Notes: generated from the letters alone by a model not told the origin. A stretch of DNA of 64,000 bases from a virus (IMGVR_UViG_3300013947_000024:32001-96000), one strand, 5' to 3'. Positions 10,452 through 44,652 are shown, numbered from the stretch's first letter. A program made the numbers and translations.

Positions 10452-10583
10452 ACGAAATAAACACTCTACAAGGCTTCTAATTGTTTTGGTAGGTAAATTA
10501 TATACCCAAACGCATTTCGCGCGTTATAGCGAATTCTGGAGCCTTGTAGAGCCATATTATTGAAGAAAGGAAGATATATTATT

Positions 10584-10889
10584 ATGCAAATGCGTGAATA
10601 CAAGTTCCAGTATCAACTTAACGGCAAGAATATTGTCCGTATTGAAGCCGTTTCTGATTCTGTACCAGCAGAAATGCCAACCTCTGACAAGATTGACGGC
10701 TTCCCTCAGATGTGGGCACCAGAAACAATTCAATGGGCGGCTGGTAGTCTTGTGTATGTAGTGAATACTGGAGACACCTACATGGCAAATGAAAGCGGTG
10801 TGTTCAAAAAGGTTATTCAAAGCAGTTCTTCTTCTGGTGGTGGCGGCACTGGCGGAGACGATCCTGATGGTGAGACTACCTACTTCTAA
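10584..10889 (+). CDS. Small hypothetical virion protein
   Basis: ORF with ATG at 10584 downstream of AAGGAAG; Ser/Gly-rich tail. Confidence 0.6.
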   Translation: MQMREYKFQYQLNGKNIVRIEAVSDSVPAEMPTSDKIDGFPQMWAPETIQWAAGSLVYVVNTGDTYMANESGVFKKVIQSSSSSGGGGTGGDDPDGETTYF

Positions 10890-27137: not shown

Positions 27138-27153
27138 CGACTAAATCTAATAG
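27138..27153 (+). promoter_or_regulatory. Candidate late-promoter motif, copy 3
   Basis: CGACTAAATCTAATAG upstream of terminase. Confidence 0.6.
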
Positions 27154-27290
27154 TGGCTCTTTACGAGTCAAACAACCAAGAAGCGCGCATTGCACGGTCT
27201 GGAAATCATACAGCCTCCCCTTACCCGCCTTCTTGTTGTAATACACAGGATCGCGGGTTTTTCTTATTCCAGAGGAAAGGAGGAAACAAA

Positions 27291-29723
27291 GTGGAGAATC
27301 TCCCAAAGGAATTACAAGGACTATCGGAAGAAGAATTAAGAGTAGCCAAAGAAATTCTCTCCCAACTTGCTACAGAGGGAAAATCAGAAAAGTTAGATGA
27401 CCTTAAATATGCAGACTATGCAGAGATACCAGTGGATATTGAGACATTTTTGCACGAAAGACAGTATCTTGGCAATGCTCTATACGATCAAGACGGACGA
27501 TTTACCTTGTTCCCCTATTGGGAAGAGAAATTAAAGGAAATCTTTCCAACGAATACGGAAACAGCCTATAATACTGTTATTTTTACAGGCGCTATCGGAC
27601 TTGGAAAGTCGACCATAGCCGTTATCTGTCTTTTGTATATGCTATATCGGCTACTTTGCTTAAAAGACCCATACTTACACTTTGGCTTGCAACCAGTCGA
27701 TAAGATTACAGTATCTCTGATGAACATCACCATTGAAAACGCCAAAGGCGTTGCTGGTGACAAAATGAATCAAATGATCCTGTCAAGTTCATGGTTTATG
27801 AGCCACGGAGAAATGAATGGGACATCGAACCTGTCATACAAGCCGAACAAGCACATTGAGGTTGTAGCCGCGTCAAGCAATAACCAAGTAATTGGTCGCG
27901 CTATTTATTGCTTAGATGGCGATACTGTTATTTCGACATCTACTGGCTCGTATAAAATCAAAGACCTTGTGTATAAACCAATTCGCGTTTATACCGTCGG
28001 AGAAGATAAAAAACAAACACTTAGTGATATTTGTTGCGTAAAACCAACAATCAGGACAAATTGCGAATGCCGTGTTACTTTGGAAGATGGCACTGTAATT
28101 AGGTGCACCGCGAATCATAGACTAATGCTCCATGACGGTGCATACAAGGAAGCATTCACATTGCATAGCGGAGATCGTCTGTATAGTGTTGGTTTTAATT
28201 CGATGGTCGTTAAATCGGTAGATACTGTGAAATTGTATGAAAAGAAGCAGTTTTATGATGTGGTAGAGTGCAATCCGAATCATAATTTCATTATTAAGAC
28301 GATCACGGGAGAAATCGTCTCGCATAACTGCAACTTTAGTGATGAGGTCAACTGGGGAATTACCAACGACACAGAGAAGCTAAAGAAGAAGTATAAACAA
28401 CTTATTGCGCAGATTGACGCTCGTATGAAGTCTCGTTTCTTGCGAGGGACATATCTACCGACAATGAATATCATTGCGTCTTCAAAGAACAACGAACAAT
28501 CGTTCTTGGACGAATATATCAACCTAAAAAAGAAAAACGAGTCAAAGAATACTCTTATTGTTGATGAGCCACAGTGGGTGGTTGATAATCGAAAAGACAC
28601 GAAGGAAAAGTTTTTTGTAGCAATAGGTAATAGATTCCTTGCTAATGAATTGTTGCCAAGAGACGCCTCTGAAATATTGCTTGATGAATATAGAGCTAAG
28701 GGGTATTCAATTCTTAAAGTCCCTATGGGGTATTTGGAAGACTTTCAGCAGAACATAGACCAAGCGCTTATGGATATTGCTGGAATTGCTACGGCAAGTG
28801 CTACAAAATATATTTCTGGCGTCAGATGGAATGAGATTAAGAATGATAAATATCAGAATCCGTTTGTAAAAGAAATTATCGAAGTCGGAACCGCTAAAGA
28901 CGATATTGCACAGTATAGCGATTTCTTCGATATTTCAAGAATTCCACCAGAGATTCGACATAAGCCGATATATCTTCACCTCGACCTATCTGTTAAAGGA
29001 GACAAAACAGGTATAGGTGCAGTTGCCGCAATAGGCAAAAAACCATCGGTTGAAGGTGCTGACGCGTCGAGAGACATGATATACCGCATTGTTTTTAGTG
29101 TGAGCGTGCAGGCACCAAAAGGCTATGAAATCAGCTTTGATAAATCACGCACATTTGTTAGGTGGTTACGGGAAAATGGATTTAACATTAAGGGCGTTTC
29201 ATTCGACTCGTTCGCCTCCCCACAGTTAAAACAGCAGTTAATAGCAGATGGATTTGTGGCGCAAACAATCTCCGTAGATAGACTTGACCCCGAAACAAAG
29301 CAGTGTCTTCCGTATGCTTATTTCAAGTCAACGGTATATGAGAGACGCATTGAGGTCTATGCTGATTGCCCATTCTTAACAGAGGAAGTTTTAGGGCTTG
29401 AAAGAGAACTTGATGGGCATGTAAACCACCCCGATAATGGTAAAAACGGATCGAAAGATGCAATCGACGCAATCGTAGGAGCGCTCTATCATGCCTCTCA
29501 GCACGCTGAAGAATACGCCTATGATTACGGAGAATCAATAGATGTGATGCTGGAGTCAAACCAAGACGAAGGAATCAATCAAGCAAAAGAACAAGCAACA
29601 GTTGATTTTGCACAAGAGCTACAAAAGGTAATTATGCAAAACCGATCTATTTCCACACTACACCAAGAAGAAGCACAACATCAAGACCTACACGACAACG
29701 GGTTCTATGATGTTGTCATCTGA
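27291..29723 (+). CDS. terL: Terminase large subunit with mini-intein
   Basis: Walker A GAIGLGKST; Walker B (AIY-CNFSDEV after splicing); nuclease HLDLS..GD and SKDAIDA; GTG start after AGGAGG; precedes portal. Confidence 0.9.
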   Translation: MENLPKELQGLSEEELRVAKEILSQLATEGKSEKLDDLKYADYAEIPVDIETFLHERQYLGNALYDQDGRFTLFPYWEEKLKEIFPTNTETAYNTVIFTGAIGLGKSTIAVICLLYMLYRLLCLKDPYLHFGLQPVDKITVSLMNITIENAKGVAGDKMNQMILSSSWFMSHGEMNGTSNLSYKPNKHIEVVAASSNNQVIGRAIYCLDGDTVISTSTGSYKIKDLVYKPIRVYTVGEDKKQTLSDICCVKPTIRTNCECRVTLEDGTVIRCTANHRLMLHDGAYKEAFTLHSGDRLYSVGFNSMVVKSVDTVKLYEKKQFYDVVECNPNHNFIIKTITGEIVSHNCNFSDEVNWGITNDTEKLKKKYKQLIAQIDARMKSRFLRGTYLPTMNIIASSKNNEQSFLDEYINLKKKNESKNTLIVDEPQWVVDNRKDTKEKFFVAIGNRFLANELLPRDASEILLDEYRAKGYSILKVPMGYLEDFQQNIDQALMDIAGIATASATKYISGVRWNEIKNDKYQNPFVKEIIEVGTAKDDIAQYSDFFDISRIPPEIRHKPIYLHLDLSVKGDKTGIGAVAAIGKKPSVEGADASRDMIYRIVFSVSVQAPKGYEISFDKSRTFVRWLRENGFNIKGVSFDSFASPQLKQQLIADGFVAQTISVDRLDPETKQCLPYAYFKSTVYERRIEVYADCPFLTEEVLGLERELDGHVNHPDNGKNGSKDAIDAIVGALYHASQHAEEYAYDYGESIDVMLESNQDEGINQAKEQATVDFAQELQKVIMQNRSISTLHQEEAQHQDLHDNGFYDVVI
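27909..28328 (+). mobile_element. Mini-intein (140 aa) in terminase
   Basis: Begins CLDGDT, has block B TANHRL, ends IVSHN followed by Cys+1; no endonuclease domain. Confidence 0.9.
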
Positions 29724-29738
29724 TGAAAGGAATTTTAT

Positions 29739-31628
29739 ATGTCGAAACTTACTGAAGACGGAGTGAACAACGGCGCGCCTTCTGTTTTTGAAACAGACGA
29801 CAAGGTGTACAACAATCCGATTAAACCTATTCCTAAACCAGCAAAGAATATCGGTATTGATACCGAGGGCGAATTTTATGACAACCTAATTGAAGCGGGT
29901 GAGTCTGGAATTCTTGCTACAGCAAATATTGAACGCTTTTCTCAAGTGTCCGATATGCGTAATCAGCTTTATAACATGATGGATAGCATGATGTCAGACC
30001 CAATCATTTCGACTGGCGTTGAGATTTATGCGGAGAACTGCGCAGAAGCGAATGATAGAGGACATGTGGTATGGGCGGAGTCAGAACAGAAAGAAGTGGC
30101 TGATTATGTCAACCATCTGCTTGATGTTATCAATGTGGATAAACACGCGTACACATGGATTCTTAGCTTAATTAAGTACGGCGACCTTTATCTCCGACTT
30201 TACAGAAATTCAGAATACAACGGTTCAATCTTCAAAAAGAAAGAAAAAGAGAGACTACAAGAGCAGGTCAACATTAAGGCGTACAGCAAGAACGATAAAT
30301 ACGCAAACTATGTAGAGATGGTGAAAGACCCGTCCGTCATGTTTGAGCTTACGAGATTTGGCAAGACAGAGGGGTATATTGAGGCGTCAAACCCTACACA
30401 GATGTATGAGGGTTCCCAGCTTACAGATAACTATGTCAAATTCCAGTTTAATAGTGGAGATGTGAATATCTACGAGGCGACAGAATTTGTTCATGCCTAT
30501 CTTGCGGATAATTCTTCTCGTTATACAGAAACTGTGAATATCGCCAATGGAGAAGACGGCAGGGAATATGAGTATGCTGTTCGTAAAGGAAAGCCAATGC
30601 TCTACGACTTGTACAAGCTATGGAGACAGCAAACTCTTCTTGAAAGCTCTGTGATTCTTAACCGTGTAACCCGTTCGGCTATCACTCGTATTCTTTCCGT
30701 TGATGTCGGAGATATGCCAAAAGATCAGGTACAGAAGCGACTCTCCAAAATCAAGGCTCTCATTGAACAGAAGTCTGCTATTCGTCAGGGCGATGGAATG
30801 ACTGATTATACCGACCCGAGTCCCATCGAGAATATTATTTATCTTCCTGTCAATGGGGAGAAGGGTGCTATCCAGCAGTTGACCATTGGCGGAGATGTGA
30901 ATGTGGGCGACCTTACAGACCTTGATTACTTCAAGAACAAGTATTACGGCGCTCTTGGTATTCCGAAGCAGTACCTTGGTGATACTGGCGATTCTGCTGG
31001 ATTCGACGCTGGTTCAAGCCTTGCACAAATTTCTTCGCAGTTTGCAAAGAAGGTCGGAAGAATTCAGGATTCGTTCATTCAGGCTATCGAAGAGCTTGTT
31101 AACCTTATGCTCCTTGACAGAGACCTTGGCGGGTATATCAATAAGTTTTCTATCAAGATGGTTTCTCCTGCAACGAAAGAAGAAACGGATAGACAGAATA
31201 ACGCCGTTGCTCGTGTTAGCTTTGCAACCGATGTCGTGAACGCCGTAAGTAATGTCATTGACGATGAGGAGACAAGGCTGAAAGTTCTTCGCGCTATGAT
31301 GACCAATGCGGTAGGCGAAACAGAGGTTCCTGCCATTATCGACGAATATATCACTCGCAGAGACGCAGAGATTGCCGAGGACGAGGCAAAAGGCGAAGAC
31401 GAGGGTGAAGATACCGCCGAAGAGGAAACGCGCGAGGAAGAGCCTGTAATGCCCGTTGGAGGCAGTGCTCTTAACAGAGGTATCGGCAGAGCGCCTTTCG
31501 GAGCAGAAGAAGAGACAGAGACGGAAGTATCGGTAGAAGCTCCTGAAGCTCCAGAGGAAAGAGAAGAGACAATTCTTCCTACGCCCGCAGAGCTTAATTT
31601 AGACTTGACAGACAACAGCGAAGCGTAA
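29739..31628 (+). CDS. Portal protein (T4 gp20-like)
   Basis: KYGDLYL, LLESSVILNRVTRS...VDVGDMPK, DLDYFKNKYYGALGIPKQYL motifs; position after terL. Confidence 0.85.
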   Translation: MSKLTEDGVNNGAPSVFETDDKVYNNPIKPIPKPAKNIGIDTEGEFYDNLIEAGESGILATANIERFSQVSDMRNQLYNMMDSMMSDPIISTGVEIYAENCAEANDRGHVVWAESEQKEVADYVNHLLDVINVDKHAYTWILSLIKYGDLYLRLYRNSEYNGSIFKKKEKERLQEQVNIKAYSKNDKYANYVEMVKDPSVMFELTRFGKTEGYIEASNPTQMYEGSQLTDNYVKFQFNSGDVNIYEATEFVHAYLADNSSRYTETVNIANGEDGREYEYAVRKGKPMLYDLYKLWRQQTLLESSVILNRVTRSAITRILSVDVGDMPKDQVQKRLSKIKALIEQKSAIRQGDGMTDYTDPSPIENIIYLPVNGEKGAIQQLTIGGDVNVGDLTDLDYFKNKYYGALGIPKQYLGDTGDSAGFDAGSSLAQISSQFAKKVGRIQDSFIQAIEELVNLMLLDRDLGGYINKFSIKMVSPATKEETDRQNNAVARVSFATDVVNAVSNVIDDEETRLKVLRAMMTNAVGETEVPAIIDEYITRRDAEIAEDEAKGEDEGEDTAEEETREEEPVMPVGGSALNRGIGRAPFGAEEETETEVSVEAPEAPEEREETILPTPAELNLDLTDNSEA

Positions 31629-32213: not shown

Positions 32214-32688
32214 TTGGAAATTCTTGAAATAGTAAAGGCGTATTACGGTGTCGTCGACTGTCCGTATGATGGTGTGACATACATTCTTCCAGATGGAGCT
32301 ATGTTGGACATGCGAGGGTGCAATCATCATAGCGATGTAGAGAAGTTTCTTGTAGATTCTGGATTGAGCAATGAGCCATACACAGAAATCGGCGGAAGCA
32401 ACACTATCAATCACCCAGCTCCAAATGAGCGTAGACCAATTCAAGTCTGCTGATTGATCAGACTAAGTGCTACGAGCACTCCGTTATTGTAATACGAGGA
32501 GATACTATTTTGAATTACCAAGCAAGCACATTACCGAGGCACAGAAGCGCAAACTCACGGAATGGCTGGATTTTCTGCGAGAGCAGTGCAACTTTGTCAC
32601 ATATTTGTGTGGCAGAGAGCATCACTTCTTTTCGTTACAGAATACACCATTACAGGACATTGTAGAGCGAGGAATATACAGTGATTGA
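32214..32688 (+). pseudogene. Hypothetical gene split by an IscB/HEARO-like fragment
   Basis: TTG start after GAGGT; N-half YILPDG.MLD..H..V ends in insertion-derived sequence; C-half CN...ELP...TEAQ..L.EWLD is in another frame. Confidence 0.5.
32406..32487 (+). ncRNA. Truncated 5' part of a HEARO/IscB omegaRNA-like element
   Basis: ATCAATCACCC...GATTGATCAGACTAAGTGCTACGAGCACTCCGTTA resembles the GTCAAYYACCC...TTGACCAGMCTAAG..CTACGTT opening of HEARO RNAs. Confidence 0.55.
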
Positions 32689-34204
32689 AAAGCTCACGGC
32701 GGAAGATGTTCTTACATACAGACCGCTTACAGAAGAAGAAAAGAACCGTGGTATTCTCGGTAGACTTTACGGCAATGTAGCAGATACATTCCGTGCTACG
32801 AGAAACGGGCGGAAATATAGCGAGCAACTTTGGGAAAAAGTCTTTAATGACAGTCTTGTTAAAGAGGGCTTTCAGAGTGGTGGTATTCCTGGTGAATTAG
32901 ACCACCCTACTGATAGAACAGAGACTTGCTCCGAGAAAATCGCTATTATGATGCCAGCACCGCCCAAGAAGAACAAAGACGGTAAACTGGTAGCATACTT
33001 CGATATTCTTGATACGCCTAACGGAAGAATTGCATATACCCTTGCTAAGTACGGGTATAAATTCGGCATTAGTAGCCGAGGAGACGGCGAGGTTGAAGAG
33101 GATTACGACGGAACTTCCGAAGTGCTCCCCGATAGCTTTGATTTTAAGGCTTTCGACCTTGTTCTTCTGCCCGCAGTAAAGGAAGCGCGTATGCAACTTG
33201 TGGCGGAGTCTTTTGATACAAAGAGAAGTGTTAGGGGCGCTCTTATCGAGTCTCTTAATAATTCCACAGAAGATGAGCGCAAGATTATGGAAGATACGCT
33301 TGATAAATTAAAAATTGATTATAAGCCTGAAAAGGCAGATAATACAGAGTGTGAATCCGAAGAGAAAGAAGAAGCCGACAATGACGGTTCGTTGATCCTT
33401 GAAGATTTGCAAGTTGCGTTAAAAGAAAAGAAGGAACTGGAAGACACGGTTGCAGAGCTTCACGAGAAGTTGTCTGTTTGCTATGCAAAAGAAGCCAAGT
33501 ATGAAGCCGCAGACCAAGAGAGAAAGAAAATCTCTGCAAAGGTGGCAGAACTTACTCGCGCCAACGATGCTCTGAAAGCTACTAACGGTCGTTTAACGGA
33601 ACAGCTCGAAAAGGCAAATACCCATGTAGGAGACTTGAAGAAAGCAAACGCGAGATTGCTTGAATCGAAACGACGCGACGCCGCCAATAACGGCAAAGCA
33701 CTGAATGAAAGCCTTGACAAGAGTAATGCAAAAATTGCGGAACTCCAAGAAAAGATCAAGATCCTTGAAGAGGCAGCGCGTAAAGATGATTCGACCGATA
33801 AGGTGCGGAAGCTAACAGAAAGCATTTCCGAATTAAAGAAAGACGCAACGATCAAGAGTAATGAATACTCGAGAAAGATTGCAAAAGCAAACTCTCTTAC
33901 AGAACAGTATAAGAGTGTTGCTAACATGGCGGTTGATAAGTATATCAATTGTCAAGCGGTAAAACTTGGAATCGAAGCCGAAGAGATTAAGAGTCGACTT
34001 TCTGAAAATTATTCTCTTGAGGATATTGACAGATTGTGCGAAGCTATTCAGTCTCAGCAGGCAAGAGATAACAGGTTACCATTTAACACCAAATCAAACA
34101 AATTATCCATTAAAGTGTCTGCTCCTAAGAAGGATAACTCCTACGGAGAATACGATGACACAGTGGATGACAATCTGCTCTATTTAGCGAGCAGATATTC
34201 GTAA
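32681..34204 (+). CDS. Prohead protease (T4 gp21-like) fused to a coiled-coil scaffold
   Basis: TRNGRKY, GELDHP, ILDTPNG, GISSRG, FDLVLLPA motifs; C-terminal coiled coil with many L-x-E-S sites. Confidence 0.9.
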   Translation: MIEKLTAEDVLTYRPLTEEEKNRGILGRLYGNVADTFRATRNGRKYSEQLWEKVFNDSLVKEGFQSGGIPGELDHPTDRTETCSEKIAIMMPAPPKKNKDGKLVAYFDILDTPNGRIAYTLAKYGYKFGISSRGDGEVEEDYDGTSEVLPDSFDFKAFDLVLLPAVKEARMQLVAESFDTKRSVRGALIESLNNSTEDERKIMEDTLDKLKIDYKPEKADNTECESEEKEEADNDGSLILEDLQVALKEKKELEDTVAELHEKLSVCYAKEAKYEAADQERKKISAKVAELTRANDALKATNGRLTEQLEKANTHVGDLKKANARLLESKRRDAANNGKALNESLDKSNAKIAELQEKIKILEEAARKDDSTDKVRKLTESISELKKDATIKSNEYSRKIAKANSLTEQYKSVANMAVDKYINCQAVKLGIEAEEIKSRLSENYSLEDIDRLCEAIQSQQARDNRLPFNTKSNKLSIKVSAPKKDNSYGEYDDTVDDNLLYLASRYS

Positions 34205-34228
34205 AATTAGAAAGGATAAATTTTTATC

Positions 34229-35578
34229 ATGGAAAGAATCAATCTTCTTGAAGCATACAAGTCGAAGCTCTCTCTTGCAGAGTCCGTGTATGCAAAGACT
34301 CACAACGGCGAGACCGCTCCTATGGCGGTTAAACTTGCTACCGCAAAATCCATCCAGACTGTTACCAAGTTCCTGAATGAGAACCTTGCCAGCCTTGGTG
34401 CTACCCAGCTTGGCGATATGGGCGCTTTCAAGCGTGCCGTCACCAGCATCACCACCATTACGCTTCCTTCTCTGATCGCTCCCTCTCTTGTTCATACCAT
34501 TGCAATGCCCTCTCGTGCAAGCTCTTTCGTTTACATGGAGATCGTTGCTGGTTCGAATAAGGGTGGGGTGAAGAAGGGCGACCTTATCAACAACCCCTTC
34601 GCTCTTGGCAACATTGAGTCTGACTACTCGGGTGCAAGAGTCGTCGAGGATGTTACCCTTGACGCAGAGACGAAGGCTCAGCTCGCTTGGTCTCCTGTCC
34701 TCCTTACCTCCGATAACAAGCTCCTTGCTGGTTATGACGCTGACGGCAACGAGATTGCTGTGACTCTGACCTACAATGGTGCGGCTGTTACCTATACCGC
34801 TACGGCTGATGGTGTTATCACCGTTACTGCTGGTGCGGCGGCTACGAATGTTCTGAAGGTTAAGTATATCTACGACAACGCGTTCATTCCTGCTCGTGAC
34901 ATTCCTACCATCACCGCTCGTGAGAGAAATATTCCTCTGTATGCTAAGGTTCGCAGACTTGCTATCTACTACAGCCAGCTCGCCGCGTTCCAGAGCAAGC
35001 AGGACTATGGTATGGATCTCGAGAAGACGCTCTCTACTCAGGCGGTTGCAGAGCTTCAGTATCAGATCGACACCGAAGTTTGTGATATGCTCGTTGATGG
35101 CGCTACCGAGGAAGCCGCTCTCGTTTGGAGCAAGACTCTCCCGATCGGTGTGTCGAAACGCGACCACTTTGATGGTTTTAGCGAGATGATTTCTCTTGCT
35201 CGTTCTATCGTGTTTAAGAGAACTCAGAAGTATGCTCCAAACTGGATGCTTTGCGCTCCCGATGTTCTCCCTGTCCTTAAGATGGTTACTGGCTTCCGTG
35301 CGGCTCCCGCGTCTGTGATGGCTGGTCCGTATCTTGCTGGCGAGATCGACGGCATGAAGGTGTTCGTGTCTGCTCATCTTGAGGATGGTGTGTACTGCTT
35401 CGGTGCTCAGTACCCCGAGCTTCAGGCAAACTGCGGCGTCCTTGCTACCTACATGCCTATCGTTCCCACGATGCTTGTTATGGGTCCCGATGGTGGCGCT
35501 ACGCAGGGCTTCTCCTCTATGTACGACTGTAAGGTTCTTAACCCCCTGCTCCTCGTCAAGGGTAGAATCACTGCCTAA
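34229..35578 (+). CDS. Major capsid protein (T4 gp23-like)
   Basis: 449 aa after the protease; AKVRRL, ELQYQIDTEV, GVLATYMPI motifs; highly biased codon usage. Confidence 0.9.
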   Translation: MERINLLEAYKSKLSLAESVYAKTHNGETAPMAVKLATAKSIQTVTKFLNENLASLGATQLGDMGAFKRAVTSITTITLPSLIAPSLVHTIAMPSRASSFVYMEIVAGSNKGGVKKGDLINNPFALGNIESDYSGARVVEDVTLDAETKAQLAWSPVLLTSDNKLLAGYDADGNEIAVTLTYNGAAVTYTATADGVITVTAGAAATNVLKVKYIYDNAFIPARDIPTITARERNIPLYAKVRRLAIYYSQLAAFQSKQDYGMDLEKTLSTQAVAELQYQIDTEVCDMLVDGATEEAALVWSKTLPIGVSKRDHFDGFSEMISLARSIVFKRTQKYAPNWMLCAPDVLPVLKMVTGFRAAPASVMAGPYLAGEIDGMKVFVSAHLEDGVYCFGAQYPELQANCGVLATYMPIVPTMLVMGPDGGATQGFSSMYDCKVLNPLLLVKGRITA

Positions 35579-35592
35579 TTTTGAGTTTTTAC

Positions 35593-35655
35593 TTGAAATT
35601 GCGTAAGTAAAATCATATATAGTAGTGTGAGGGGAGAAATCCTCTCCACTACTAT
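35593..35655 (+). promoter_or_regulatory. Promoter plus hairpin upstream of the endonuclease gene
   Basis: TTGAAA-17 nt-TATATA, then hairpin TAGTAGTG..CACTACTA; the motif recurs at 62229. Confidence 0.5.
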
Positions 35656-35704
35656 CAATATGTTCCACAAGCCGTGTTAGGCAGAGGAATACCAAGGAAA
35701 ACAA

Positions 35705-37201
35705 ATGACTTTTGAAAGCGCAAAGAAAAACTTTTCGAAGGAGTTCCTTGAAGATAAATATCTTGCACAAGGACTGTCCAAGGAAAATCTTGCAAAAGAA
35801 ATTGGAATATCTCTCTGTTTGTTGAATCATCTTTTGTCTTGCTATGACATTAAGAAATCACAGGAAGACATTAAGAAGCAGTCTCTCACTGGTTTAATGA
35901 GGCGAGCGCAGAAGCGAAGAGATGTGGCAGAAGAAACTCTGTCTAACATTGACAGAGATGAGCTTTACAGGCTTTACATCGTAGAGAATGCTCGCTATGA
36001 AGATATAGCAAAACATTACGGTGTTTCCTGCTATAGGCTTGATAAGATTTTGGCTGAATACGGCATCCATAAGAGCAAGAAGCAGGCACATATTCTTACA
36101 ACAGAGACAAATATTAAGAAACACGGCTCTATTGAAGCATATCATAAGCAAGCAAGAGAGAGCGCCGTTAAGACGATTCTGAAAAAGAGTGGGTCTCTTG
36201 AAGAACATTATGCGAATGTCGCCAAGAAAATGTCTGCTACCAAGGAAGAGCGTTATGGCTCTCGGCATTACTACAATGTCGATGGTATGCGCAAGACTTG
36301 CTTGGAGAAGTACGGTGTCGAGGCTCCTTGTATGCTCCCACAAGTCCGTATGCACGGGAATGACTCTAAACCGAATAAAGAGTTTGAAGAGCTTTTGATT
36401 GCTAACGGAATTGAATATGAGCGAGAATTTGCTCTTGGAAGTTATTCATATGATTTCCGTATCGGAAAGATTCTCATAGAAATCAATCCTACCGCCACGC
36501 ATAATTCTTCTTATTCTCCGTTCCCCGATAGAACACCGACGGACAGTCGATACCACGAAAAGAAAACGACCTACGCAAGAACGCACGGTTTTCGTTGTGT
36601 CAATGTGTGGGATTGGGATGATAAAGATAAGGTTGTTTCGCTCTTGCAAAAGAGACAGAAGATAAACGCAAGAGATTGTGAAATTGTCTCTATCTCACAG
36701 AACGAAGCGTCTGACTACCTAAATAAGTATCATCTTCAAGGATATGCAAAGGACGAGATTAGATTTGCTCTTACATATCATGGAGAGATTGTTCTCGTGA
36801 TGACATTTGGAAATCCTCGCTACAACAAGAAGTTTGATTATGAGTTAATTAGGCTTTGTTCTCATTGCTATGTTGTTGGAGGGGCAGAAAAAGTATTTTC
36901 GTACTTTCTACGAACATATTCTCCTACATCCGTTGTTAGCTATTGTGACTTTTCAAAATTCAACGGCGATGTCTACGAGCGACTTGGGTTTCGGTTTGAG
37001 GATTATTCTGTGGGAAAACACTGGTACAACCCAAGAACTGGAAGACATATCACCGATGCTCTTCTTCGCGCCAGAGGAGCCGACCAATTGCTTGGTACTG
37101 ATTACGGTATTGGCGCAGACAATAAGGGTATTATGCTGTCTGATGGCTTCGTAGAAATCTATGACGCCGGGCAGGCAAGATATACATACATAGCTCATTA
37201 A
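35705..37201 (+). CDS. Free-standing homing-endonuclease-like protein (Hef-type PD-(D/E)xK with HTH repeats)
   Basis: HTH repeats, TCLEKYGVE motif, YDFRI..ILIEINP..TH nuclease, C-terminal ARDC..HLQG..ELIRLC..GGAEK..SYCD domain; inserted between capsid genes. Confidence 0.75.
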   Translation: MTFESAKKNFSKEFLEDKYLAQGLSKENLAKEIGISLCLLNHLLSCYDIKKSQEDIKKQSLTGLMRRAQKRRDVAEETLSNIDRDELYRLYIVENARYEDIAKHYGVSCYRLDKILAEYGIHKSKKQAHILTTETNIKKHGSIEAYHKQARESAVKTILKKSGSLEEHYANVAKKMSATKEERYGSRHYYNVDGMRKTCLEKYGVEAPCMLPQVRMHGNDSKPNKEFEELLIANGIEYEREFALGSYSYDFRIGKILIEINPTATHNSSYSPFPDRTPTDSRYHEKKTTYARTHGFRCVNVWDWDDKDKVVSLLQKRQKINARDCEIVSISQNEASDYLNKYHLQGYAKDEIRFALTYHGEIVLVMTFGNPRYNKKFDYELIRLCSHCYVVGGAEKVFSYFLRTYSPTSVVSYCDFSKFNGDVYERLGFRFEDYSVGKHWYNPRTGRHITDALLRARGADQLLGTDYGIGADNKGIMLSDGFVEIYDAGQARYTYIAH

Positions 37202-37761: not shown

Positions 37762-38472
37762 ATGGATAGAAAAGCGTTCAAAGACGAAATCGCATTTAGG
37801 CTTACTGGCGGTGTGCTACAACTTGAATTAGACGATGTAGCTCTTGATAATGTCTTAAATGCGGCGTTTAGAGAGGTGCAGAGATATATCGACACCACAA
37901 AGATTGTCACAATCCCATTTCAAAGATGTATCGACTTAAAAGGCGCTAAAGTTAGTGCGGTGTCTACTGTCATGCGGGCAGACCCGAGAGGCGGTGGATT
38001 CACGAATTATGGGGCTTCTATGTCAGACCCTATTACAGCGTCTATGTGGCAAATTATGTCGGGTGGAGCAATGCATAATGTTGCAAATTTTGTGTTAAAT
38101 TATGCGTCATATAATACTCTGCTACAAATAAGAAACACGGTGTCAACCGACTTAGACTTTTATTACGATAAGTCGTCCGAGCAATTGTATATCAATGTGT
38201 TGGATTCACAACCGCCTTATATCACAATTGAATTCGTCCCGAGATACGATGATGTGTCAGAGGTTGTGTCTGATTACTGGATTGATATAATTATGCGAAT
38301 GGCTGTTGCTCTTGCAAAAGTAACGCTCGGTCGAATTCGTTCAAGATATAAACAGACAAATGCTTTGTGGGAAAATGACGGTGATACTCTTCTTACAGAG
38401 GGTAATACCGAACTGTCAGAACTACGTAGCATGTTGTCGTCAAATGCGAATGTCACATACCCGTTAGACTAA
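37762..38472 (+). CDS. Neck/head-tail adaptor (T4 gp13-like)
   Basis: ELDD..LD, ALAKVTLGRIRSRY, GD.LLTEG..EL motifs; synteny. Confidence 0.75.
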   Translation: MDRKAFKDEIAFRLTGGVLQLELDDVALDNVLNAAFREVQRYIDTTKIVTIPFQRCIDLKGAKVSAVSTVMRADPRGGGFTNYGASMSDPITASMWQIMSGGAMHNVANFVLNYASYNTLLQIRNTVSTDLDFYYDKSSEQLYINVLDSQPPYITIEFVPRYDDVSEVVSDYWIDIIMRMAVALAKVTLGRIRSRYKQTNALWENDGDTLLTEGNTELSELRSMLSSNANVTYPLD

Positions 38473-38493: not shown

Positions 38494-40836
38494 ATGTTTA
38501 CGGAAGAAATTTTTGAAAAACTCCGCGCTCTTAACGAAGAGGTTTTTACTACTGACAAAGAAGGTATTGAAGACCTTGACGAATTTGAGAAGAATGATGA
38601 AGAGAGCACCGAGGTTGAAGTAATCGACGCAGAGGCAGAGAATGAAGACGAACTGAAAGACTCTTATGTCGGTCAGGTCATTCTTGACTGTTGCGTTTGC
38701 CACTCTAAGATTTTTAGAGATAAGCACAAGATTACTCTTGATGAGACGAGAACTCTTGCCGATGTTGGTGAGGAGTGCCCGTATTGCTATGCCACCGATG
38801 GCTATAAGATTATCGGCGTTGTGTCTGATTTCAACCCCGAGGCAGAAGAGACCGAAGAGGAAATCGAAATCCGCAAGAAGGAAGAGATGAAAGAAGCTCT
38901 TGAAGAAAAGAAGAGAGCGCTTAAAGAATCTTCCGATAGAGTGCTTAATGCTGTCGCCGAGTATTTCAAGTATCAGGACGACGATCTGATTCGTCTTGTT
39001 GCCGATGGACTTGAATCTGTTGACTTCGCCGATGAGGACGATGTTGATAGCGCTATCGATAACATGATGATGTATAATGAAGACATTGTCAAGATCATGC
39101 TTCATTATACGAACCCCGAGCTTGACGAACAGACCGTTGATGAGTTTTCTGAAGATGTAAGAGCTATTGCAAGAGAGCTTGCAGAGAGCAAAGAAGATGA
39201 CGATGCTCTTGATGAGTCTTGGGAACAGAAGACCTTTAAGACAGATGAAGAGCGTAAAAAGTGGAAAGAAGCTAACAAAGACAAGTACCAGATCGACGAT
39301 ATTTTTGTTAATAACGGCTATGGTGTTGAGTATCGCCCGCTGAAGAAGGTTAATCTTGAGAAGTGTGGCGAAAAGAAGGGTCTTAGAGAATCCTACGAAG
39401 AAGTCGACGAGATTGAGGATATTACCACTGGCGAGCTGTTCAGAGTCTTTGGTGGCGGGTTCAATACCAGAGATGCTCTTGTGACTGTCGAAGACGCAGA
39501 GGGCAAGAGAAAGCGTATTGACATTGGCGATGTAATCAATGGCTATCGTTGGCATAAAGATGGCGAGGTCATTCATGAGCCTGTTCTTGAAGAGAGCAAG
39601 AAAGAGCTGAAAGAAGCTCCTATGTACGACCTTGTGCCTACCGATGGTAGAGCGTCTTTCTATGGAAAGGCAAAGGTTATTAAGGACGACGACAGCAAGG
39701 ACGAAAAGCTGTATTCCTATAATACTCTTGTCGCAGAGTTGAAAGATGGCAAGCCCATTGTATATGATACTTATTCCGCTACTACACTTCGCCACATCAA
39801 GGCTTGGCTGACACAGCACGGATTTAAGGCTGATAGTGCAAAGCAGATTATGCAGGATTATGGCGCGCTGAATGAAGCCAATCTGACCGTCGCACAGAGA
39901 CACAACAGAGAGCTTGATCGTGTCTTTAAGTCGAAAGAGCGTCAGGACGCGAAATTTGCGAAGTTCCTTAAGGATCACGGATACACAGACGAGCAGATCG
40001 AAAAACTTCGTGCAGACGACAAACTTTCCGATGAAATTGCTGATAAGTTTGTAAAAGAAGGCGAAAAGCCGTCAGATGTTCTTGGTTCTATCCTTAAAGA
40101 AGACCTTGGCGAAGATGTCGCGAAGTACCAGAGATGGGTTGACTACGACATGAAGAGATACGGAAGAATCTCTGACAAGACCATGGAAGAGGTCACGAAG
40201 GCTGGGCTGAGCGTCGTAAAAGACCAGTACGGCGAGTACGAGGTTATTGCCCACGCTCCCATTGAAGAGGATCTCGAAAAGGTCGAAGTAGAAACAAAAG
40301 ACGAGAAGATTGAAGTAAAGCAAGAGGGCGAAAAAGTAGTGGTTGAAGCAGAAAAGAAAGAGGAAGAGACCATTAAGCCTATGGACGATGAAGTCAAGGC
40401 GGAAATCGCTATTGACGCGGCTAAGGCGGAAGATGACGATTTTGTCGATATTGATATTGACGAGTTTGATGAAGAAACTTTTGACAAGCTTGGTGAGTCC
40501 TATCTGAAGAGAGTGTACAACAACATTGATAGCTATCACACAACGAACGCTTCCACTTCTGGAAAGACGATTACTCTTGAGGGCGTGATTAAGTTTAAGA
40601 GTGGCAACGAAAAGAAGACGGGCTTTGTCTTTGAAGCGGTGAATGTAAACCGCAAGGGCAAGATCGGCTTCCGTGGTGAGAACTGTCAGATTACGCCTAA
40701 TAGGAAGGCGTTCCTTATGAGAGGTGGCGTCGACGGTGGTAAAAAGTTTGTCGCCGAATCTCTTAACTACAACTACCGCGTAGCCACAAAGAATGGCTCG
40801 CAGAGAATGTACGGCACAGTAAGAAGTGGAAAGTGA
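38494..40836 (+). CDS. Large acidic multi-module protein, candidate internal head polyprotein
   Basis: 780 aa; CCVC..CPYC zinc site; unrelated small modules separated by LKES, LDES, LRES, LEES/LKEA, LNEA, LKED, IEED. Confidence 0.7.
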   Translation: MFTEEIFEKLRALNEEVFTTDKEGIEDLDEFEKNDEESTEVEVIDAEAENEDELKDSYVGQVILDCCVCHSKIFRDKHKITLDETRTLADVGEECPYCYATDGYKIIGVVSDFNPEAEETEEEIEIRKKEEMKEALEEKKRALKESSDRVLNAVAEYFKYQDDDLIRLVADGLESVDFADEDDVDSAIDNMMMYNEDIVKIMLHYTNPELDEQTVDEFSEDVRAIARELAESKEDDDALDESWEQKTFKTDEERKKWKEANKDKYQIDDIFVNNGYGVEYRPLKKVNLEKCGEKKGLRESYEEVDEIEDITTGELFRVFGGGFNTRDALVTVEDAEGKRKRIDIGDVINGYRWHKDGEVIHEPVLEESKKELKEAPMYDLVPTDGRASFYGKAKVIKDDDSKDEKLYSYNTLVAELKDGKPIVYDTYSATTLRHIKAWLTQHGFKADSAKQIMQDYGALNEANLTVAQRHNRELDRVFKSKERQDAKFAKFLKDHGYTDEQIEKLRADDKLSDEIADKFVKEGEKPSDVLGSILKEDLGEDVAKYQRWVDYDMKRYGRISDKTMEEVTKAGLSVVKDQYGEYEVIAHAPIEEDLEKVEVETKDEKIEVKQEGEKVVVEAEKKEEETIKPMDDEVKAEIAIDAAKAEDDDFVDIDIDEFDEETFDKLGESYLKRVYNNIDSYHTTNASTSGKTITLEGVIKFKSGNEKKTGFVFEAVNVNRKGKIGFRGENCQITPNRKAFLMRGGVDGGKKFVAESLNYNYRVATKNGSQRMYGTVRSGK

Positions 40837-40846
40837 GGTAAACAGT

Positions 40847-42643
40847 ATGGCAAGAATTTGCGAAGAACTGAAAAACCTCATGGAAGCATTTGATGTTGGC
40901 GAGGGGCATGAAGAACCCCTCGCAAGCACCGATGTTAAGACGAGACTGCGCCACGCTCTGATTGAGGCGGCTTCTGAATTTGACGATGAGTCGGCAGATG
41001 TTAAGTCTGTGGAAGCAGTTCTCCAGTCTACAATTGAGCGTGTTACTGGTATGCCTTGGTACGAAGCAACGAAGTCTAAGATTGTTTGGGATTTGCTTGA
41101 ACATCATAGTATCTCACACACTATCGACGATATTCTTGACAATCTGATTACTGTCGAAGATGAGAGTGAAAAGGTTGAGGAGAAGTTTGAAGGCAGTCTT
41201 ACGCAGAAGGAAGCGGCTGAACTTGCTCTTCGTGCCAAGAAAGAAGACCCTTCGGCATATGCCGTGCTCTATGGCGTGAGATACCCCAATGAGAGAAGAG
41301 CGCACTTCTTCGATCCTGTCTATATCGAAGACGAGAATGAAATGCGTCAGAGAGTTGGTTCCGCTACAATGGTTTATGCTCTCTATAATAAGAAAGACCC
41401 TTTTAAGGAGAGCAAAGAAGACGCAAACGCGCTCATGATGAAGATTGAAAAGCTCTATAATCGCTATCATGATTATATCGACGGCGAGTATACGGCGCAT
41501 AATGAGGTTGAGAGCGATAAGATTATCGACGAGCTTCATGATCTTCTTGTAGAGAACGGTCTGCGCGATGAAGAAATCGGCTGTATTATCGACGCCATGG
41601 ATATTGATTATCGCAAGGACTTTGTTCCCGTTGTTCTTAAATGCCTCCACTCCATGAAAGAAGATGTCGTAAAACAGGGTTCGTACTGGGTAAACAAAGG
41701 CAAGGAAGGAACACACGGCAAATTCAAGACGAAGAAAGAAGCCGAGGCTCAAACTCGAGCAATGTATGCCAGAGGGTTTCGTGAGTCATGGGTTGATAAC
41801 GCGAAAGTAATTGACAGAAAAGATCTGCCTAAACTCGGTGATAAGAAATATGATAGCGTCGTTACGGAAGTTAAAAAGATCGACGAAAAAGATGGATATG
41901 AAATCTACCGTGTATCGTATACGGAAGAGGGATCGATCGGTCTAAGCGATGATGACTTCACGATTGATACGGCGCATTGGGAGTTTGCAGTCCCGAAAAA
42001 TCGCATTGAAGAGAAGGTATCTCCAAAGGATTTTAATCCAACCATCACGGGCAAGGCATATAAAGTGTTCAGAGTGAAGAACGGCAAACTATACCCTCCC
42101 ATGGTGGCTAATGCTGGCAACGAGGCAACTCCTGTCGGGGTTTGGCTTGATGCTGAAGAGGGTGAGTTTGCGGGTTTATCAAAGACTGGTCGAATGAAGG
42201 TAAAGTCTTCCGGTGGTGGAACACTGGCTTATAGACCAGGATGGCACTTAGGTGATTTGCCTCTTGCAAAGCAGTTTTACAGAACAAACAAAGAGACTGG
42301 CGAGAAAGAATTTCCGAAAGACTTTGTTTGGGCTGAATGTGATTATGTGGCTGATATAGACTATCAAGATGAAGCTATGTCTTACGGATATACGCCGAGT
42401 GGAAAGTTTCAACATAGTCTTGCTGGACTTCCTAAACTGCCCAAGGGTGGATATTATAGGTATAGAACAAATCCAAACCCAGATACAGTACCGTGGATTA
42501 TCACTGGAGCAATGAAAGTAAACAGACTGCTCGACGACAAAGAGGTGGCTAACATTCTTGCGAGCCATGGAATCGAAGCTCCGAAGCGAGAGGGAGGAGA
42601 GAAAACTCTTGCTGACCTCGGGCTTAAACAAGTAGGAGAGTGA
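40847..42643 (+). CDS. Multi-module protein with polyvalent-protein-like C-terminal domain
   Basis: Modules separated by LMEA, FKES, MKED, FRES, IEEK; last module KAYKVF..GKLYPPMV..LAYRPGWHLG..WAEC. Confidence 0.65.
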   Translation: MARICEELKNLMEAFDVGEGHEEPLASTDVKTRLRHALIEAASEFDDESADVKSVEAVLQSTIERVTGMPWYEATKSKIVWDLLEHHSISHTIDDILDNLITVEDESEKVEEKFEGSLTQKEAAELALRAKKEDPSAYAVLYGVRYPNERRAHFFDPVYIEDENEMRQRVGSATMVYALYNKKDPFKESKEDANALMMKIEKLYNRYHDYIDGEYTAHNEVESDKIIDELHDLLVENGLRDEEIGCIIDAMDIDYRKDFVPVVLKCLHSMKEDVVKQGSYWVNKGKEGTHGKFKTKKEAEAQTRAMYARGFRESWVDNAKVIDRKDLPKLGDKKYDSVVTEVKKIDEKDGYEIYRVSYTEEGSIGLSDDDFTIDTAHWEFAVPKNRIEEKVSPKDFNPTITGKAYKVFRVKNGKLYPPMVANAGNEATPVGVWLDAEEGEFAGLSKTGRMKVKSSGGGTLAYRPGWHLGDLPLAKQFYRTNKETGEKEFPKDFVWAECDYVADIDYQDEAMSYGYTPSGKFQHSLAGLPKLPKGGYYRYRTNPNPDTVPWIITGAMKVNRLLDDKEVANILASHGIEAPKREGGEKTLADLGLKQVGE

Positions 42644-42649
42644 TGTCTT

Positions 42650-43132
42650 TTGGAAAAATACGGAAAGCTATTAGCTCCAGATGCTAAAATCCAAAGACAA
42701 TATTTCAAAGAGCTTGTTCAATTATACGGAATTCAGGTGATATATAGAGCGCCCAGAGAGGGAAAGCATTATACCACTTATGCAGAGATAGATAGTAATT
42801 ATTACGAACCTATTCTTGTGGGGTGTATTTTTGACGAGCACCCCACACAGAAAACGCTAAAGAAAATCGGGTGGACTTCGGAACTTCAAACGGAGTCCTC
42901 CCTCATTAGCGTTCCGTATGATTTGGAAAAGATTCAGGCTGGTGCTTTGTTCATGATTCCGAGCGGGCTTGATAATGGAAAGGCAAGACTTTTCAGAGTA
43001 AAGGTTTTGTCTAACATTATGATTTATCCCGCTTCTATTACATGCGAGATTGTGCCCGAATACGAGAATGTATACTCTACTGGCTTAAATGTGGTAAAGA
43101 GAGATTCGATGAATGTTTTGAATGAGGAGTGA
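42650..43132 (+). CDS. Head-tail connector/neck (T4 gp14-like)
   Basis: KELVQLYGIQVIY, LKKIGW motifs; synteny; AGGAG RBS. Confidence 0.6.
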   Translation: MEKYGKLLAPDAKIQRQYFKELVQLYGIQVIYRAPREGKHYTTYAEIDSNYYEPILVGCIFDEHPTQKTLKKIGWTSELQTESSLISVPYDLEKIQAGALFMIPSGLDNGKARLFRVKVLSNIMIYPASITCEIVPEYENVYSTGLNVVKRDSMNVLNEE

Positions 43133-43138
43133 TGGAAT

Positions 43139-44065
43139 ATGCTGTTTCGTGTATTAAAAGAAAACATCGGTTATTCCGACATCCCAGACCTTCAAGCAAG
43201 AGTCGAAATCGCAACCAAGGATTTGACGAGCGAACAAGAGCAGTATCAAGCCATTAAAGATGTACTTGACGAAGACACTACTCTTATTCCTGCTAATGTG
43301 AGTGGTTCGCAAAGAGATACGCTTACTACCATTTGGGCGGACACATTACTCTATGACGGATTTGACGGAGAGTTTACAAATCTTCTGATTTCCATGGTGG
43401 GACAGGACGAAATTCTCTCTAATTACGGCGATAAAATCATGCAATTATGGCTTTTGTATGATGAAGGACGACTAAATCTATCAGATGGAATTATTCCACC
43501 AGAAGATTTTTATAGTCACCCTGCTCTTTACAAAGATACCTCTAATGACGACTTTGAATATCTCGTCAATGCAGAGATGATTGTCAACCACAACGATAAG
43601 GTTAGACAGTACATAAAAGCAACCCCGTCGCAGGACGATGTTCGAAAAGTGTTCTTTAAGGGCTTTAGAGGCTCGCAGGGGCTTAATACAGCCGAAGAGG
43701 TATATCAGAACATAGAAGCGCTTTCCGCTAAATATGGAGAGTCTGAGAGCCTTATGAGCATATCTGATGCGGTGAGCAAAGAGTCTGGAGCTGATTTTGA
43801 TAAGATGGATGATTCATCTATTGCTTCGACGCTTAAGGAATATGTGGATAGATACATTAGGCAGATTGATAAGACTTCATTTAAGTCTCAAGGCGGATAT
43901 TCAGTAAACGCTTATCAAGATGCGATTGAAGAGTTGTCTCACAATGGTAGAGATCTAAAATCGCTAATCGACGCAAAGATTGTAAGAGAGGCTACAAGCA
44001 AAGAAATTGCTCTCGCGATTATGGATTGGCTTGAGAAGAATCGTGTGCTCGAGAGGATCAGATAA
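43139..44065 (+). CDS. Hypothetical protein, candidate internal head protein
   Basis: 308 aa, starts MLFRVLKEN; GAGGAG RBS. Confidence 0.65.
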   Translation: MLFRVLKENIGYSDIPDLQARVEIATKDLTSEQEQYQAIKDVLDEDTTLIPANVSGSQRDTLTTIWADTLLYDGFDGEFTNLLISMVGQDEILSNYGDKIMQLWLLYDEGRLNLSDGIIPPEDFYSHPALYKDTSNDDFEYLVNAEMIVNHNDKVRQYIKATPSQDDVRKVFFKGFRGSQGLNTAEEVYQNIEALSAKYGESESLMSISDAVSKESGADFDKMDDSSIASTLKEYVDRYIRQIDKTSFKSQGGYSVNAYQDAIEELSHNGRDLKSLIDAKIVREATSKEIALAIMDWLEKNRVLERIR

Positions 44066-44652
44066 TGGGTGCATTTTTATACGATGAAGCCTTAACAGCA
44101 AAGATTAAAAGATGGTCTGAAAGAACAGAGCTTAGTATTGTAGGACCTGATGAAACAGAACATCTTTTTGAAATGATAGCCGACCAAAACAACGACAAGC
44201 CAATCGCGCTTCCTCTTATCAGTATTGTCAGACCGAATGGATATACAGTAAACCAGCTTGGGAAAAGATGGTCGTCATTCAGTGGTCTTAACATAGAGTC
44301 AACCGAAGATAAATCTTATGTGTTGAACCAAATTCCAATTACAATAGAATACAGGATTGACATATACACCCGATATCAAAAAGAAGCGGATGTATATGCG
44401 AGGAATCTTGTATTTAATATTATAAACTTCCCTAAACTCACAGTTGAAGTTCCTTATGAGGGGACACATTTCAGGCATGATTCCAACATAAGATTGACTG
44501 GCGGAGTAGAAAACACATCGGATCTTTCACAACGAATCGTCGCAGGACAATTCACGAGATATAGTATTGGAATTGATATTGACGACGCTTTCTTGTGGGA
44601 TATACGAGCAAAAGACAATTTGTCTATTGTGCCTGAAGTTGAATTAAAATAA
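44065..44652 (+). CDS. Tail terminator/completion protein (T4 gp15-like)
   Basis: LPLISIVR, PITIEYRIDIYT motifs; immediately before the sheath. Confidence 0.65.
   Translation: MGAFLYDEALTAKIKRWSERTELSIVGPDETEHLFEMIADQNNDKPIALPLISIVRPNGYTVNQLGKRWSSFSGLNIESTEDKSYVLNQIPITIEYRIDIYTRYQKEADVYARNLVFNIINFPKLTVEVPYEGTHFRHDSNIRLTGGVENTSDLSQRIVAGQFTRYSIGIDIDDAFLWDIRAKDNLSIVPEVELK

Follow-up and report, generated by a model that had tools for sequence, protein, structure and literature searches.

The window analysed here comprises bases 32001-96000 (64,000 nucleotides) of one 129,560-bp virus contig, IMGVR_UViG_3300013947_000024, and feature coordinates are given as window positions. The phage is an uncultured myovirus with a T4-type capsid, displaying a gp23-like shell and a gp21-like protease fused to the scaffold, and the plus strand of the window carries a late operon that surrounds the two adjacent open reading frames (ORFs) studied here, ORF1 (P0001) and ORF2 (Table 1). 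An initial annotation proposed that both encode polyproteins that are packaged, cut in the head by the head protease and injected as small effectors. The two ORFs exist and translate as that annotation wrote them; ORF2 most likely starts at the ATG 40847, with a GAGG ribosome-binding site, rather than at the GTG 40826. The pair was also described as lying between two neck genes. Only the upstream Ad2-like gene is identified as a neck gene; downstream of ORF2 three genes give no family match and are followed by the tail sheath and tail tube genes. Both ORFs are encoded amid virion and packaging genes, a neighbourhood which they share with the polyvalent proteins discussed below.

Gene order was compared across 41 related IMG/VR loci of at least 18 kb each. 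All 41 show the succession Ad2-like gene, ORF1, a variable slot, homologues of 42650-43132 and 44065-44652, and sheath; the tail tube gene follows the sheath in 40 of them, and the terminase, portal, protease-scaffold and capsid genes stand upstream of ORF1 in every locus whose flank reaches that far. A large phage group has ORF1 as a core gene, its position being fixed in 41 of 41 loci and its relatives forming 2,356 protein clusters at 50% identity (E ≤ 1e-3). ORF2 is an accessory gene in the variable slot: its N-terminal part was found in the slot of only five loci, its C-terminal domain in the slot of none.

AlphaFold2 models computed with the family alignments (mean predicted local distance difference test, pLDDT, 71 for ORF1 and 82 for ORF2) display both proteins as chains of 6-9 separate folded blocks, which homologues shuffle, as polyvalent proteins do. 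In 120 ORF1 relatives the N-terminal 113 amino acids (aa) and the C-terminal 190 aa persist, and the sequence between them is reshuffled. The shortest ORF1 relatives, of 364 aa, consist of the Zn-ribbon domain, an acidic linker and the beta-barrel domain, whereas the longest exceed 1,100 aa. Cys66, 69, 95 and 98 of the Zn-ribbon are invariant, and the relatives begin with M-x-x-Y-L-x-E-A-F-K, like the N-terminus of the capsid protein. The structure matches to the C-terminal domain are generic barrel folds only (Z at most 7.4), and nothing was found for it in the ESM Atlas. The Zn-ribbon N-domain and the beta-barrel C-domain probably serve assembly. The view of ORF1 as cargo would apply to its middle, which is made of cassettes, while the conserved N- and C-domains and the fixed position make it a core gene that is not merely cargo. 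In this context one has to consider that ORF1 might be mainly an accessory component of the prohead core or scaffold, like T4 gp67, gp68 and gp22, whose cut pieces mostly exit before DNA packaging and whose modules are not delivered. The fixed core gene with its minimal cargo-free 364-aa form, the very acidic composition, the capsid-like N-terminus and the cutting of T4 core proteins at many sites (PMC9026906) all speak for such a role. We nevertheless regard it as improbable, as the ORF1 middle carries folded modules known as stand-alone phage genes, the rapid gain and loss of modules fits conflict functions better, and folded pieces of 8-23 kDa would be unlikely to pass the capsid pores.

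Every border motif of the hydrophobic-x-Glu type named in the initial annotation is present in the ORF1 and ORF2 sequences, and in the AlphaFold2 models the listed borders fall in low-confidence linkers or between structured blocks. The strongest evidence on the borders, as judged from sequence comparison, is the exact loss of cassettes in ORF1 relatives, the gain or loss of whole modules that the same annotation had suggested comparing. P0003, which is 97% identical, lacks exactly aa 301-368, from KKGLRES through VLEES; this indel of 68 residues can be placed at aa 294-367 or 301-368, since the KK repeat makes the ends equivalent. P0005 lacks aa 301-458 and is rejoined at an I-N-E-A site, and P0006 lacks most of aa 459-533, with a short EKE remnant left. 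The DNA around the 301-368 indel displays only the microhomology AAGAA; as no longer direct repeat flanks this cassette, we rejected recombination driven by microhomology as an origin of the motif.

Two of the modules have stand-alone counterparts, as had been anticipated. The SFYGKA..TLRHI module of ORF1 matches phrog_4264 (E 2.8e-20), and in 58 of 58 distinct fused copies of this PF26096-type module a hydrophobic-x-E stands directly before it. Stand-alone genes for it, of 87-94 aa, are found in Bacillus phage Grass, within the terminal repeat, and in Enterococcus phage EG103P2. Grass is an SPO1-like phage, and its homologue (L001:1501-1764) lies among small terminal-repeat genes, each with its own ribosome-binding site and terminator. 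The terminal repeat of SPO1-like phages carries early host-takeover genes, and the module may be an early-gene product that the ORF1 phage delivers ready-made.

ORF2 consists of about six modules after a 13-aa N-terminal helix that ends in LME↓AF. Its GTHGKF mini-module is preceded by hydrophobic-x-E-D in 10 of 10 distinct copies and directly followed by G-[FY]-x-E in 9 of 10. The conserved 210-aa domain at its C terminus (phrog_30118) is the second module with a stand-alone counterpart. It is 55-77% identical across proteins of 268 to 5,825 aa, in which it stands alone or together with ArdA, ART-PolyVal, LPD3, LPD11, GNAT, YafQ-like, intein and other parts, and it also lies inside the 2,000-5,825-aa proteins of 40-72 kb phages. 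It has many invariant residues (Y-K-V-F, Y-P-P, R-P-G-x-H, Y-R-T-N-P) and, within giant polyvalent proteins, is one of the best-conserved regions. As a separate gene of 268-435 aa it occurs in several phages of 100-250 kb (L007-L011, L013, L018; match region 10001-10792); these copies have an insertion of about 50 residues after R-P-G-W-H..Q-F-D-R, and some begin with MKLYIRES or MKLQIKES. No Pfam family covers the domain, solved structures contain no match to it, and its profile gave nothing below E 0.14 against PDB sequences. An ART-like identity was not adopted, the Arr/PARP lead from the ESM Atlas being weak (score 0.81).

Table 1. Genes in and near the late operon and modules of ORF1 and ORF2, in window positions (↓, candidate cleavage site).
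Feature	Position	Strand	Remarks
ART-PolyVal ADP-ribosyltransferase, 660 aa, third candidate cargo	24123-26105	+	PF18760, 78 bits
Large terminase	27153-29723	+	
Portal	29739-31628	+	
Prohead protease (gp21/S77-like) fused to scaffold	32681-34204	+	507 aa; phrog_207
Major capsid protein, Gp23 family	34229-35578	+	PF07068, 57 bits
HNH homing endonuclease	35705-37201	+	between capsid and adaptor genes
Ad2-like head-tail adaptor	37762-38472	+	phrog_211, E 1.8e-11
ORF1 (P0001)	38494-40836	+	780 aa
ORF1 N-terminal peptide and Zn-ribbon (CxxC..CxxC), aa 1-145	38494-38928	+	ends ALKE↓S
ORF1 helical modules, aa 146-241 and 242-299	38929-39390	+	borders ALDE↓S, GLRE↓S
ORF1 module, aa 300-367, and spacer SKKELKE	39391-39615	+	gone in P0003
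ORF1 SFYGKA..TLRHI module, aa 375-461	39616-39876	+	PF26096 / phrog_4264; borders LKE↓A, LNE↓A
ORF1 helical modules, aa 462-536 and 537-592	39877-40269	+	borders ILKE↓D, PIEE↓D
ORF1 conserved C-terminal domain, aa 593-780, helix and beta-barrel	40270-40833	+	pLDDT >90
ORF2	40847-42643	+	598 aa from ATG 40847
ORF2 mini-module, aa 280-320 (GTHGKFKTKKEA), isoelectric point 9.9	41663-41785	+	between SMKE↓D and GFRE↓S
ORF2 conserved 210-aa domain (KAYKVF..YRPGWH..)	42014-42640	+	phrog_30118

The modules of the homologues agree with the suggestion that the chains carry anti-defence or host-takeover domains, as ArdA, ART-PolyVal, GNAT, YafQ-like, LPD3 and LPD11 are found in homologues of ORF1 and ORF2. 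With its 210-aa domain in polyvalent contexts, ORF2 probably belongs to the polyvalent proteins (PMC5512222). ORF1 and ORF2 themselves gave nothing above cut-off in Pfam (LPD26 just reached E 0.071), no peptidase family at E ≤ 0.1 in Pfam, although embedded peptidases are a frequent, if not obligatory, feature of polyvalent proteins, and no Pfam match to MuF (Phage_Mu_F), DarA or DdrB domains. Fold searches with the full-length models (Foldseek PDB, BFVD, VIA-align) returned only generic helical-bundle and beta-barrel proteins or unnamed viral proteins.

The frequency of the motif was assessed by comparing [LIVMF]xE[SAGD] with shuffles of each protein, for those ORFs of the 129.5-kb genome that reach 100 aa. 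The two highest excesses are those of the protease-scaffold (12 observed versus 3.5 expected, z 4.7) and of ORF1 (17 versus 6.9, z 4.2). Enrichment is also seen in the variable middles of 101 distinct ORF1 relatives (723 versus 359 expected, 2.0x), in those of 99 representatives of 50%-identity clusters, a set that has some members in common with the former (2.07x, 96 of 99 exceeding expectation), and in 40 distinct ORF1 relatives from IMG/VR contigs (429 versus 206). The Asp version of the motif reaches just 1.04-1.10x in the variable middles; for the 101 middles the figures are 1.04x with Asp and 1.18x with the motif reversed. Whole-protein z-scores fail to discriminate ORF2-type proteins and were rejected as a test, and depletion of the motif inside conserved modules was set aside as evidence, the copies sharing ancestry.

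Homology breakpoints were derived from all-against-all BLAST of the ORF1 and ORF2 families. A motif lies within 5 residues of the breakpoint in 47% of cases in the ORF2 family (11% at random) and in 37% in the ORF1 family (20% at random), while hydrophobic-x-Asp and hydrophobic-x-Lys controls have no effect. When only Glu contexts are counted, the motif fraction is 31% near breakpoints versus 11% away from them in the ORF2 family (odds ratio 3.5) and 20% versus 12% in the ORF1 family (odds ratio 1.8), so that the enrichment at borders goes beyond what Glu content accounts for, contrary to a refuting condition set in the initial annotation; for Asp contexts the odds ratios stay under 1. The residues enriched near breakpoints are Leu at P3 and Ser at P1'. 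Besides, of about 17 borders of Pfam-defined ArdA, GNAT, ART-PolyVal, LPD11, LPD3 and YafQ domains in the homologues, 11-12 bear the motif. In the giant polyvalent proteins with the 210-aa domain (59-72 kb phages), motif enrichment is only 1.18x, and a protein search of five such phage genomes (93-100% complete) found no relative of the present protease, an absence taken from that search because the genome-level search with PF03420 failed its positive control on the genome studied here. The low excess and the absence of the protease are suggestive at best of a tie between the motif and the type of protease.

The protease domain occupies about aa 1-175 of 507, and the C-terminal two thirds of the protein are coiled-coil and scaffold-like, with about 10 hydrophobic-x-E-[SAD] sites. 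The protein matches phrog_207, 'head maturation protease' (E 4.6e-33), and tblastn retrieved genes of Synechococcus and Rhizobium phages whose annotation reads prohead protease or 'prohead core scaffolding and protease protein', while a single-sequence search of PDB chains gave no match. From these sequence matches it is probably a member of the gp21/Peptidase_S77 family, whose known members all cut after Glu (PMC9026906, PMC10052503). The site of T4 gp21 is L/I-x-E, and Asp at P1 prevents processing; the enzyme cleaves scaffold and core proteins at numerous positions and strips 10-residue targeting peptides from internal proteins (PMC9026906). For the SPN3US protease the site is A-x-E, with a preference for Ser at P1' (PMC10052503).

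The capsid protein matches PF07068 with 57 bits, for a cut-off of 24.4, and together the family matches support a T4-like head with a gp21-family protease and a gp23-family capsid. Three candidate propeptide sites are kept in 120 capsid homologues (39-100% identical). The first, N-L-L-E↓A, stands at the very N-terminus, the second is L-A-I-S-E↓S, and the third, F-[LM]-N-E↓A, directly precedes the region aligned to the Gp23 fold; this last site we take to correspond to the T4 gp23 maturation site. In this phage the three read NLLE↓A, LAE↓S and FLNE↓N. The motif is thus indeed present, as first noticed, in the scaffold part of the protease and in the capsid N-terminus.

The putative cargo and the capsid also have an N-terminal signature in common, hydrophobic-x-E-[AS]-[FY] within the first 25 residues, which was counted by a regular-expression census. 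Of 76 distinct capsid N-termini, 64 carry it, as do 59 of 76 N-termini of the ORF1 family (111 of 126 among cluster representatives) and 17 of 40 slot genes (8 clusters without detectable mutual homology). The background is 4 of 694 other ORFs and 0.55% of internal windows, the signature being about 70-140 times commoner in capsid, ORF1-family and slot genes than in other ORFs. In this genome ORF2 (LMEAF, residues 11-15) and the capsid (NLLEAY) display it, while the start of ORF1 has diverged (ALNE↓E). With a position matrix from capsid N-termini, 43% of the ORF1-family N-termini score above the 99th percentile of the background; a short hidden Markov model of the capsid N-terminus, badly anchored, gave no matches. 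At the level of sequence, the N-terminal targeting peptide that characterises T4-type internal proteins thus has an equivalent here, and by analogy we infer that the signature corresponds to the capsid targeting sequence of T4.

The signature also bears on whether these proteins meet the head protease at all. They could instead be late cytoplasmic proteins, or parts of the neck or its decoration, that never do so, the motif statistics then reflecting shared ancestry; the genes do adjoin the adaptor gene, and structure searches gave no homologue that would place the proteins inside the head. With a signature common to the capsid and at least 8 unrelated slot genes, an enrichment reproduced in 99 clusters at no more than 50% identity, and an ArdA, ART, GNAT and YafQ-like repertoire typical of DNA-delivered proteins (PMC5512222), this seems very improbable to us.

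We hold, with moderate confidence, that ORF1 and ORF2 are head-internal cargo polyproteins and that at least several of their linkers are cut in the head. The N-terminal hydrophobic-x-E-[AS]-[FY] peptide would direct the cargo to the prohead's scaffold core, much like the 10-residue targeting sequence of T4. The activated protease would then cut after the Glu of hydrophobic-x-Glu, usually before Ser or Ala, in short disordered charged linkers, and one precursor would yield several compact pieces of 4.7-23 kDa, which match T4 IPI*, IPII* and IPIII* in size (PMC9026906). These pieces would stay in the head and exit through the tail with the DNA, still folded like T4 IPI*, a small protein that leaves through the tail in folded form (PMC9026906). 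In this manner one targeting signal would load several effectors in equal numbers, and the ORF1 middle could act as an insertion platform in which cassettes, each with its own upstream site, are gained and lost within a gene that is always expressed and packaged. Of the original proposal of packaged polyproteins cut into injected effectors, the cassette chains, the Glu- and direction-specific border motif and the protease and capsid families are borne out; packaging, cleavage, fragment retention, injection and the roles of the modules are inferred from features that were computed, namely modularity, motif statistics, protease and capsid families, synteny and module identities in homologues.

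Several observations weigh against this reading. It is based on sequence and structure models, and fold and profile searches gave no function for any ORF1 or ORF2 module. The match of the protease to PF03420 (Peptidase_S77, the T4 gp21 family) has E 1.8e-5 but its 24.8 bits stay under the 27-bit cut-off. The ORF1 C-domain holds three conserved internal motifs that are presumably uncut, so the motif alone is insufficient to define a site, and the hydrophobic-x-E before the 210-aa domain may be the domain's own, in view of the related I-R-E-x-x-P-P in giant proteins. ORF2 as a whole is unenriched (6 versus 4.2), its signal being positional only. Compared with the other Glu residues, motif Glu in the modelled linkers is favoured in ORF2 (p 0.025) and not significantly in ORF1 alone (Fisher p 0.24), as linkers are Glu-rich in general. 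The homologues are related and phylogenetically non-independent, so that p-values are overstated and the statistics overcount. Finally, a strongly acidic character (net -10 to -24) is predicted for many of the pieces, whereas the T4 internal proteins are basic; such pieces might be expelled like scaffold fragments as DNA enters.

Part of these points would also fit virion-associated polyvalent proteins that stay uncut, or lose only an N-terminal propeptide, the motif being a feature of flexible linkers or of cassette exchange. Precedents for full-length delivery are N4 vRNAP and several polyvalent proteins of plasmids (PMC5512222), and the substrate cleavages found in SPN3US all remove N-terminal propeptides (PMC10052503), which likewise speaks against cutting at internal linkers. 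Again, the linkers are Glu-rich overall and the reversed motif is itself mildly enriched (1.18-1.36x). Yet the motif is specific for Glu over Asp and directional, with Leu at P3 and Ser at P1' as at known S77 sites, the scaffold and the capsid propeptide bear this motif too, and a recombination signal does not explain the aa 301-368 indel, which has only 5 nt of microhomology. We consider uncut proteins unlikely, while giving them some weight.

Beyond ORF1 and ORF2, the ART-PolyVal gene lies two ORFs upstream of the terminase gene, with a 113-aa ORF between them. Its product begins with MRIRLTE↓T and has SLKE↓S and YLNED after the ART domain; by analogy with T4 Alt it is probably a further packaged, head-internal cargo. 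A 656-aa ORF just upstream of the window (G000:C1:29313-31283, L111) matches DUF3293 (PF11697, E 8.5e-8). With 9 motifs versus 3.7 expected (z 3.0) it has the fourth-highest excess of the genome and may encode another cargo. Far from the head module, a 282-aa ORF (G000:C1:115117-115965, L110) begins with MSVLTEV and has 5 motifs versus 1.4 expected (z 3.4), and a 97-aa ORF (G000:C1:120266-120559, L112) begins with MKLVKLNES; neither has a Pfam or PHROG match. Within the operon, the HNH gene at 35705-37201 is found in just 9 of the 41 related loci, which makes it a mobile insertion. The Ad2-like protein matches only the last quarter of the phrog_211 profile (positions 726-964 of 976), so that in other phages the adaptor domain terminates much longer proteins. 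A 548-aa minus-strand ORF at 34184-35830, which overlaps the capsid gene, was dismissed as spurious. Among cultured phages, the closest in capsid protein and protease are Bacillus HSE3 and SP-15, Listeria LIS04 and Streptococcus GXN1, all of which infect Firmicutes.

The arrangement resembles several known systems. With T4 IPI, IPII, IPIII and Alt it shares a gp23-type capsid, a gp21-type protease and an N-terminal peptide ending in hydrophobic-x-Glu (PMC9026906, PMC3012670), as well as small compact products (about 8-20 kDa in T4) and diverse anti-defence or host-modifying cargo, the ART gene paralleling Alt. In T4, however, each cargo has its own gene with one targeting peptide and loses terminal propeptides, whereas here up to about 9 modules are chained with a candidate site at each junction; one carrier here, ORF1, is a conserved core gene, and no sequence homology to the T4 internal proteins was seen. 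Polyvalent proteins, described by Iyer, Burroughs, Anand, de Souza and Aravind in 2017 as multi-domain proteins of phages and conjugative elements that are delivered with the DNA, were likened by these authors to polyproteins, with release of the domains proposed to be by embedded peptidases, e.g. a zincin-like MPTase (PMC5512222). They likewise combine unrelated domains, from two to 15, in one polypeptide, and their ART-PolyVal, LPD3, LPD11, ArdA and GNAT vocabulary is that of the homologues; they differ by their embedded peptidases, while the junctions here bear the motif of the head protease, which would act in trans, and the proteins are much smaller.

The ejection and inner-body proteins of phiKZ, 201phi2-1 and SPN3US are also cut after Glu by gp21-like proteases, at a three-residue motif with Ser at P1', and the long propeptides of giant phages undergo several cuts (PMC10052503, PMC9026906); P3 is Ala, Ser or Gly there versus Leu or Ile here, and shuffled chains of folded cargo are not described for them. 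MuF-fused polymorphic toxins, SPP1 gp7-type cargo and P1 Dar also combine a conserved head anchor with variable effectors delivered with the DNA, while the variable part here consists of several cassettes between two conserved ends. As in RNA-virus polyproteins, there would be one precursor, protease sites at domain junctions and equimolar products, although in a double-stranded DNA phage, with cutting predicted in the prohead by the maturation protease and with accessory cargo instead of replication or capsid proteins. A full-text literature search found no paper on cassette chains with head-protease sites, on an expandable core head gene or on the shared signature. What is new is the combination of polyvalent proteins with T4-style head processing, each of which was already known separately. 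Tentatively, and leaning slightly towards doubt, we extend this to a 'cargo grammar' of a large uncultured myovirus group, in which the signature would admit proteins to the head and Leu-x-Glu↓Ser cassettes would be cut by the maturation protease, a true polyprotein strategy in double-stranded DNA phages.

Should the sites be uncut, these genes still form a well-defined and very large family of shuffled multi-domain head-module proteins. If the sites are real, they would join two separate literatures, on polyvalent proteins and on T4-type head targeting and processing, and would offer an alternative to embedded peptidases for the release of domains. Automated methods could then define the limits of hundreds of small modules in gut and rumen phage metagenomes and prioritise them as putative injected proteins with anti-defence or host-takeover functions, a ranking backed by the known ArdA, ADP-ribosyltransferase, GNAT and YafQ-like members of the chains. 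An expandable core gene with a short shared signal would, if true, also be a natural template for packing several foreign proteins in a phage head, and the injected effector repertoire of these phages would be readable directly from their sequence.

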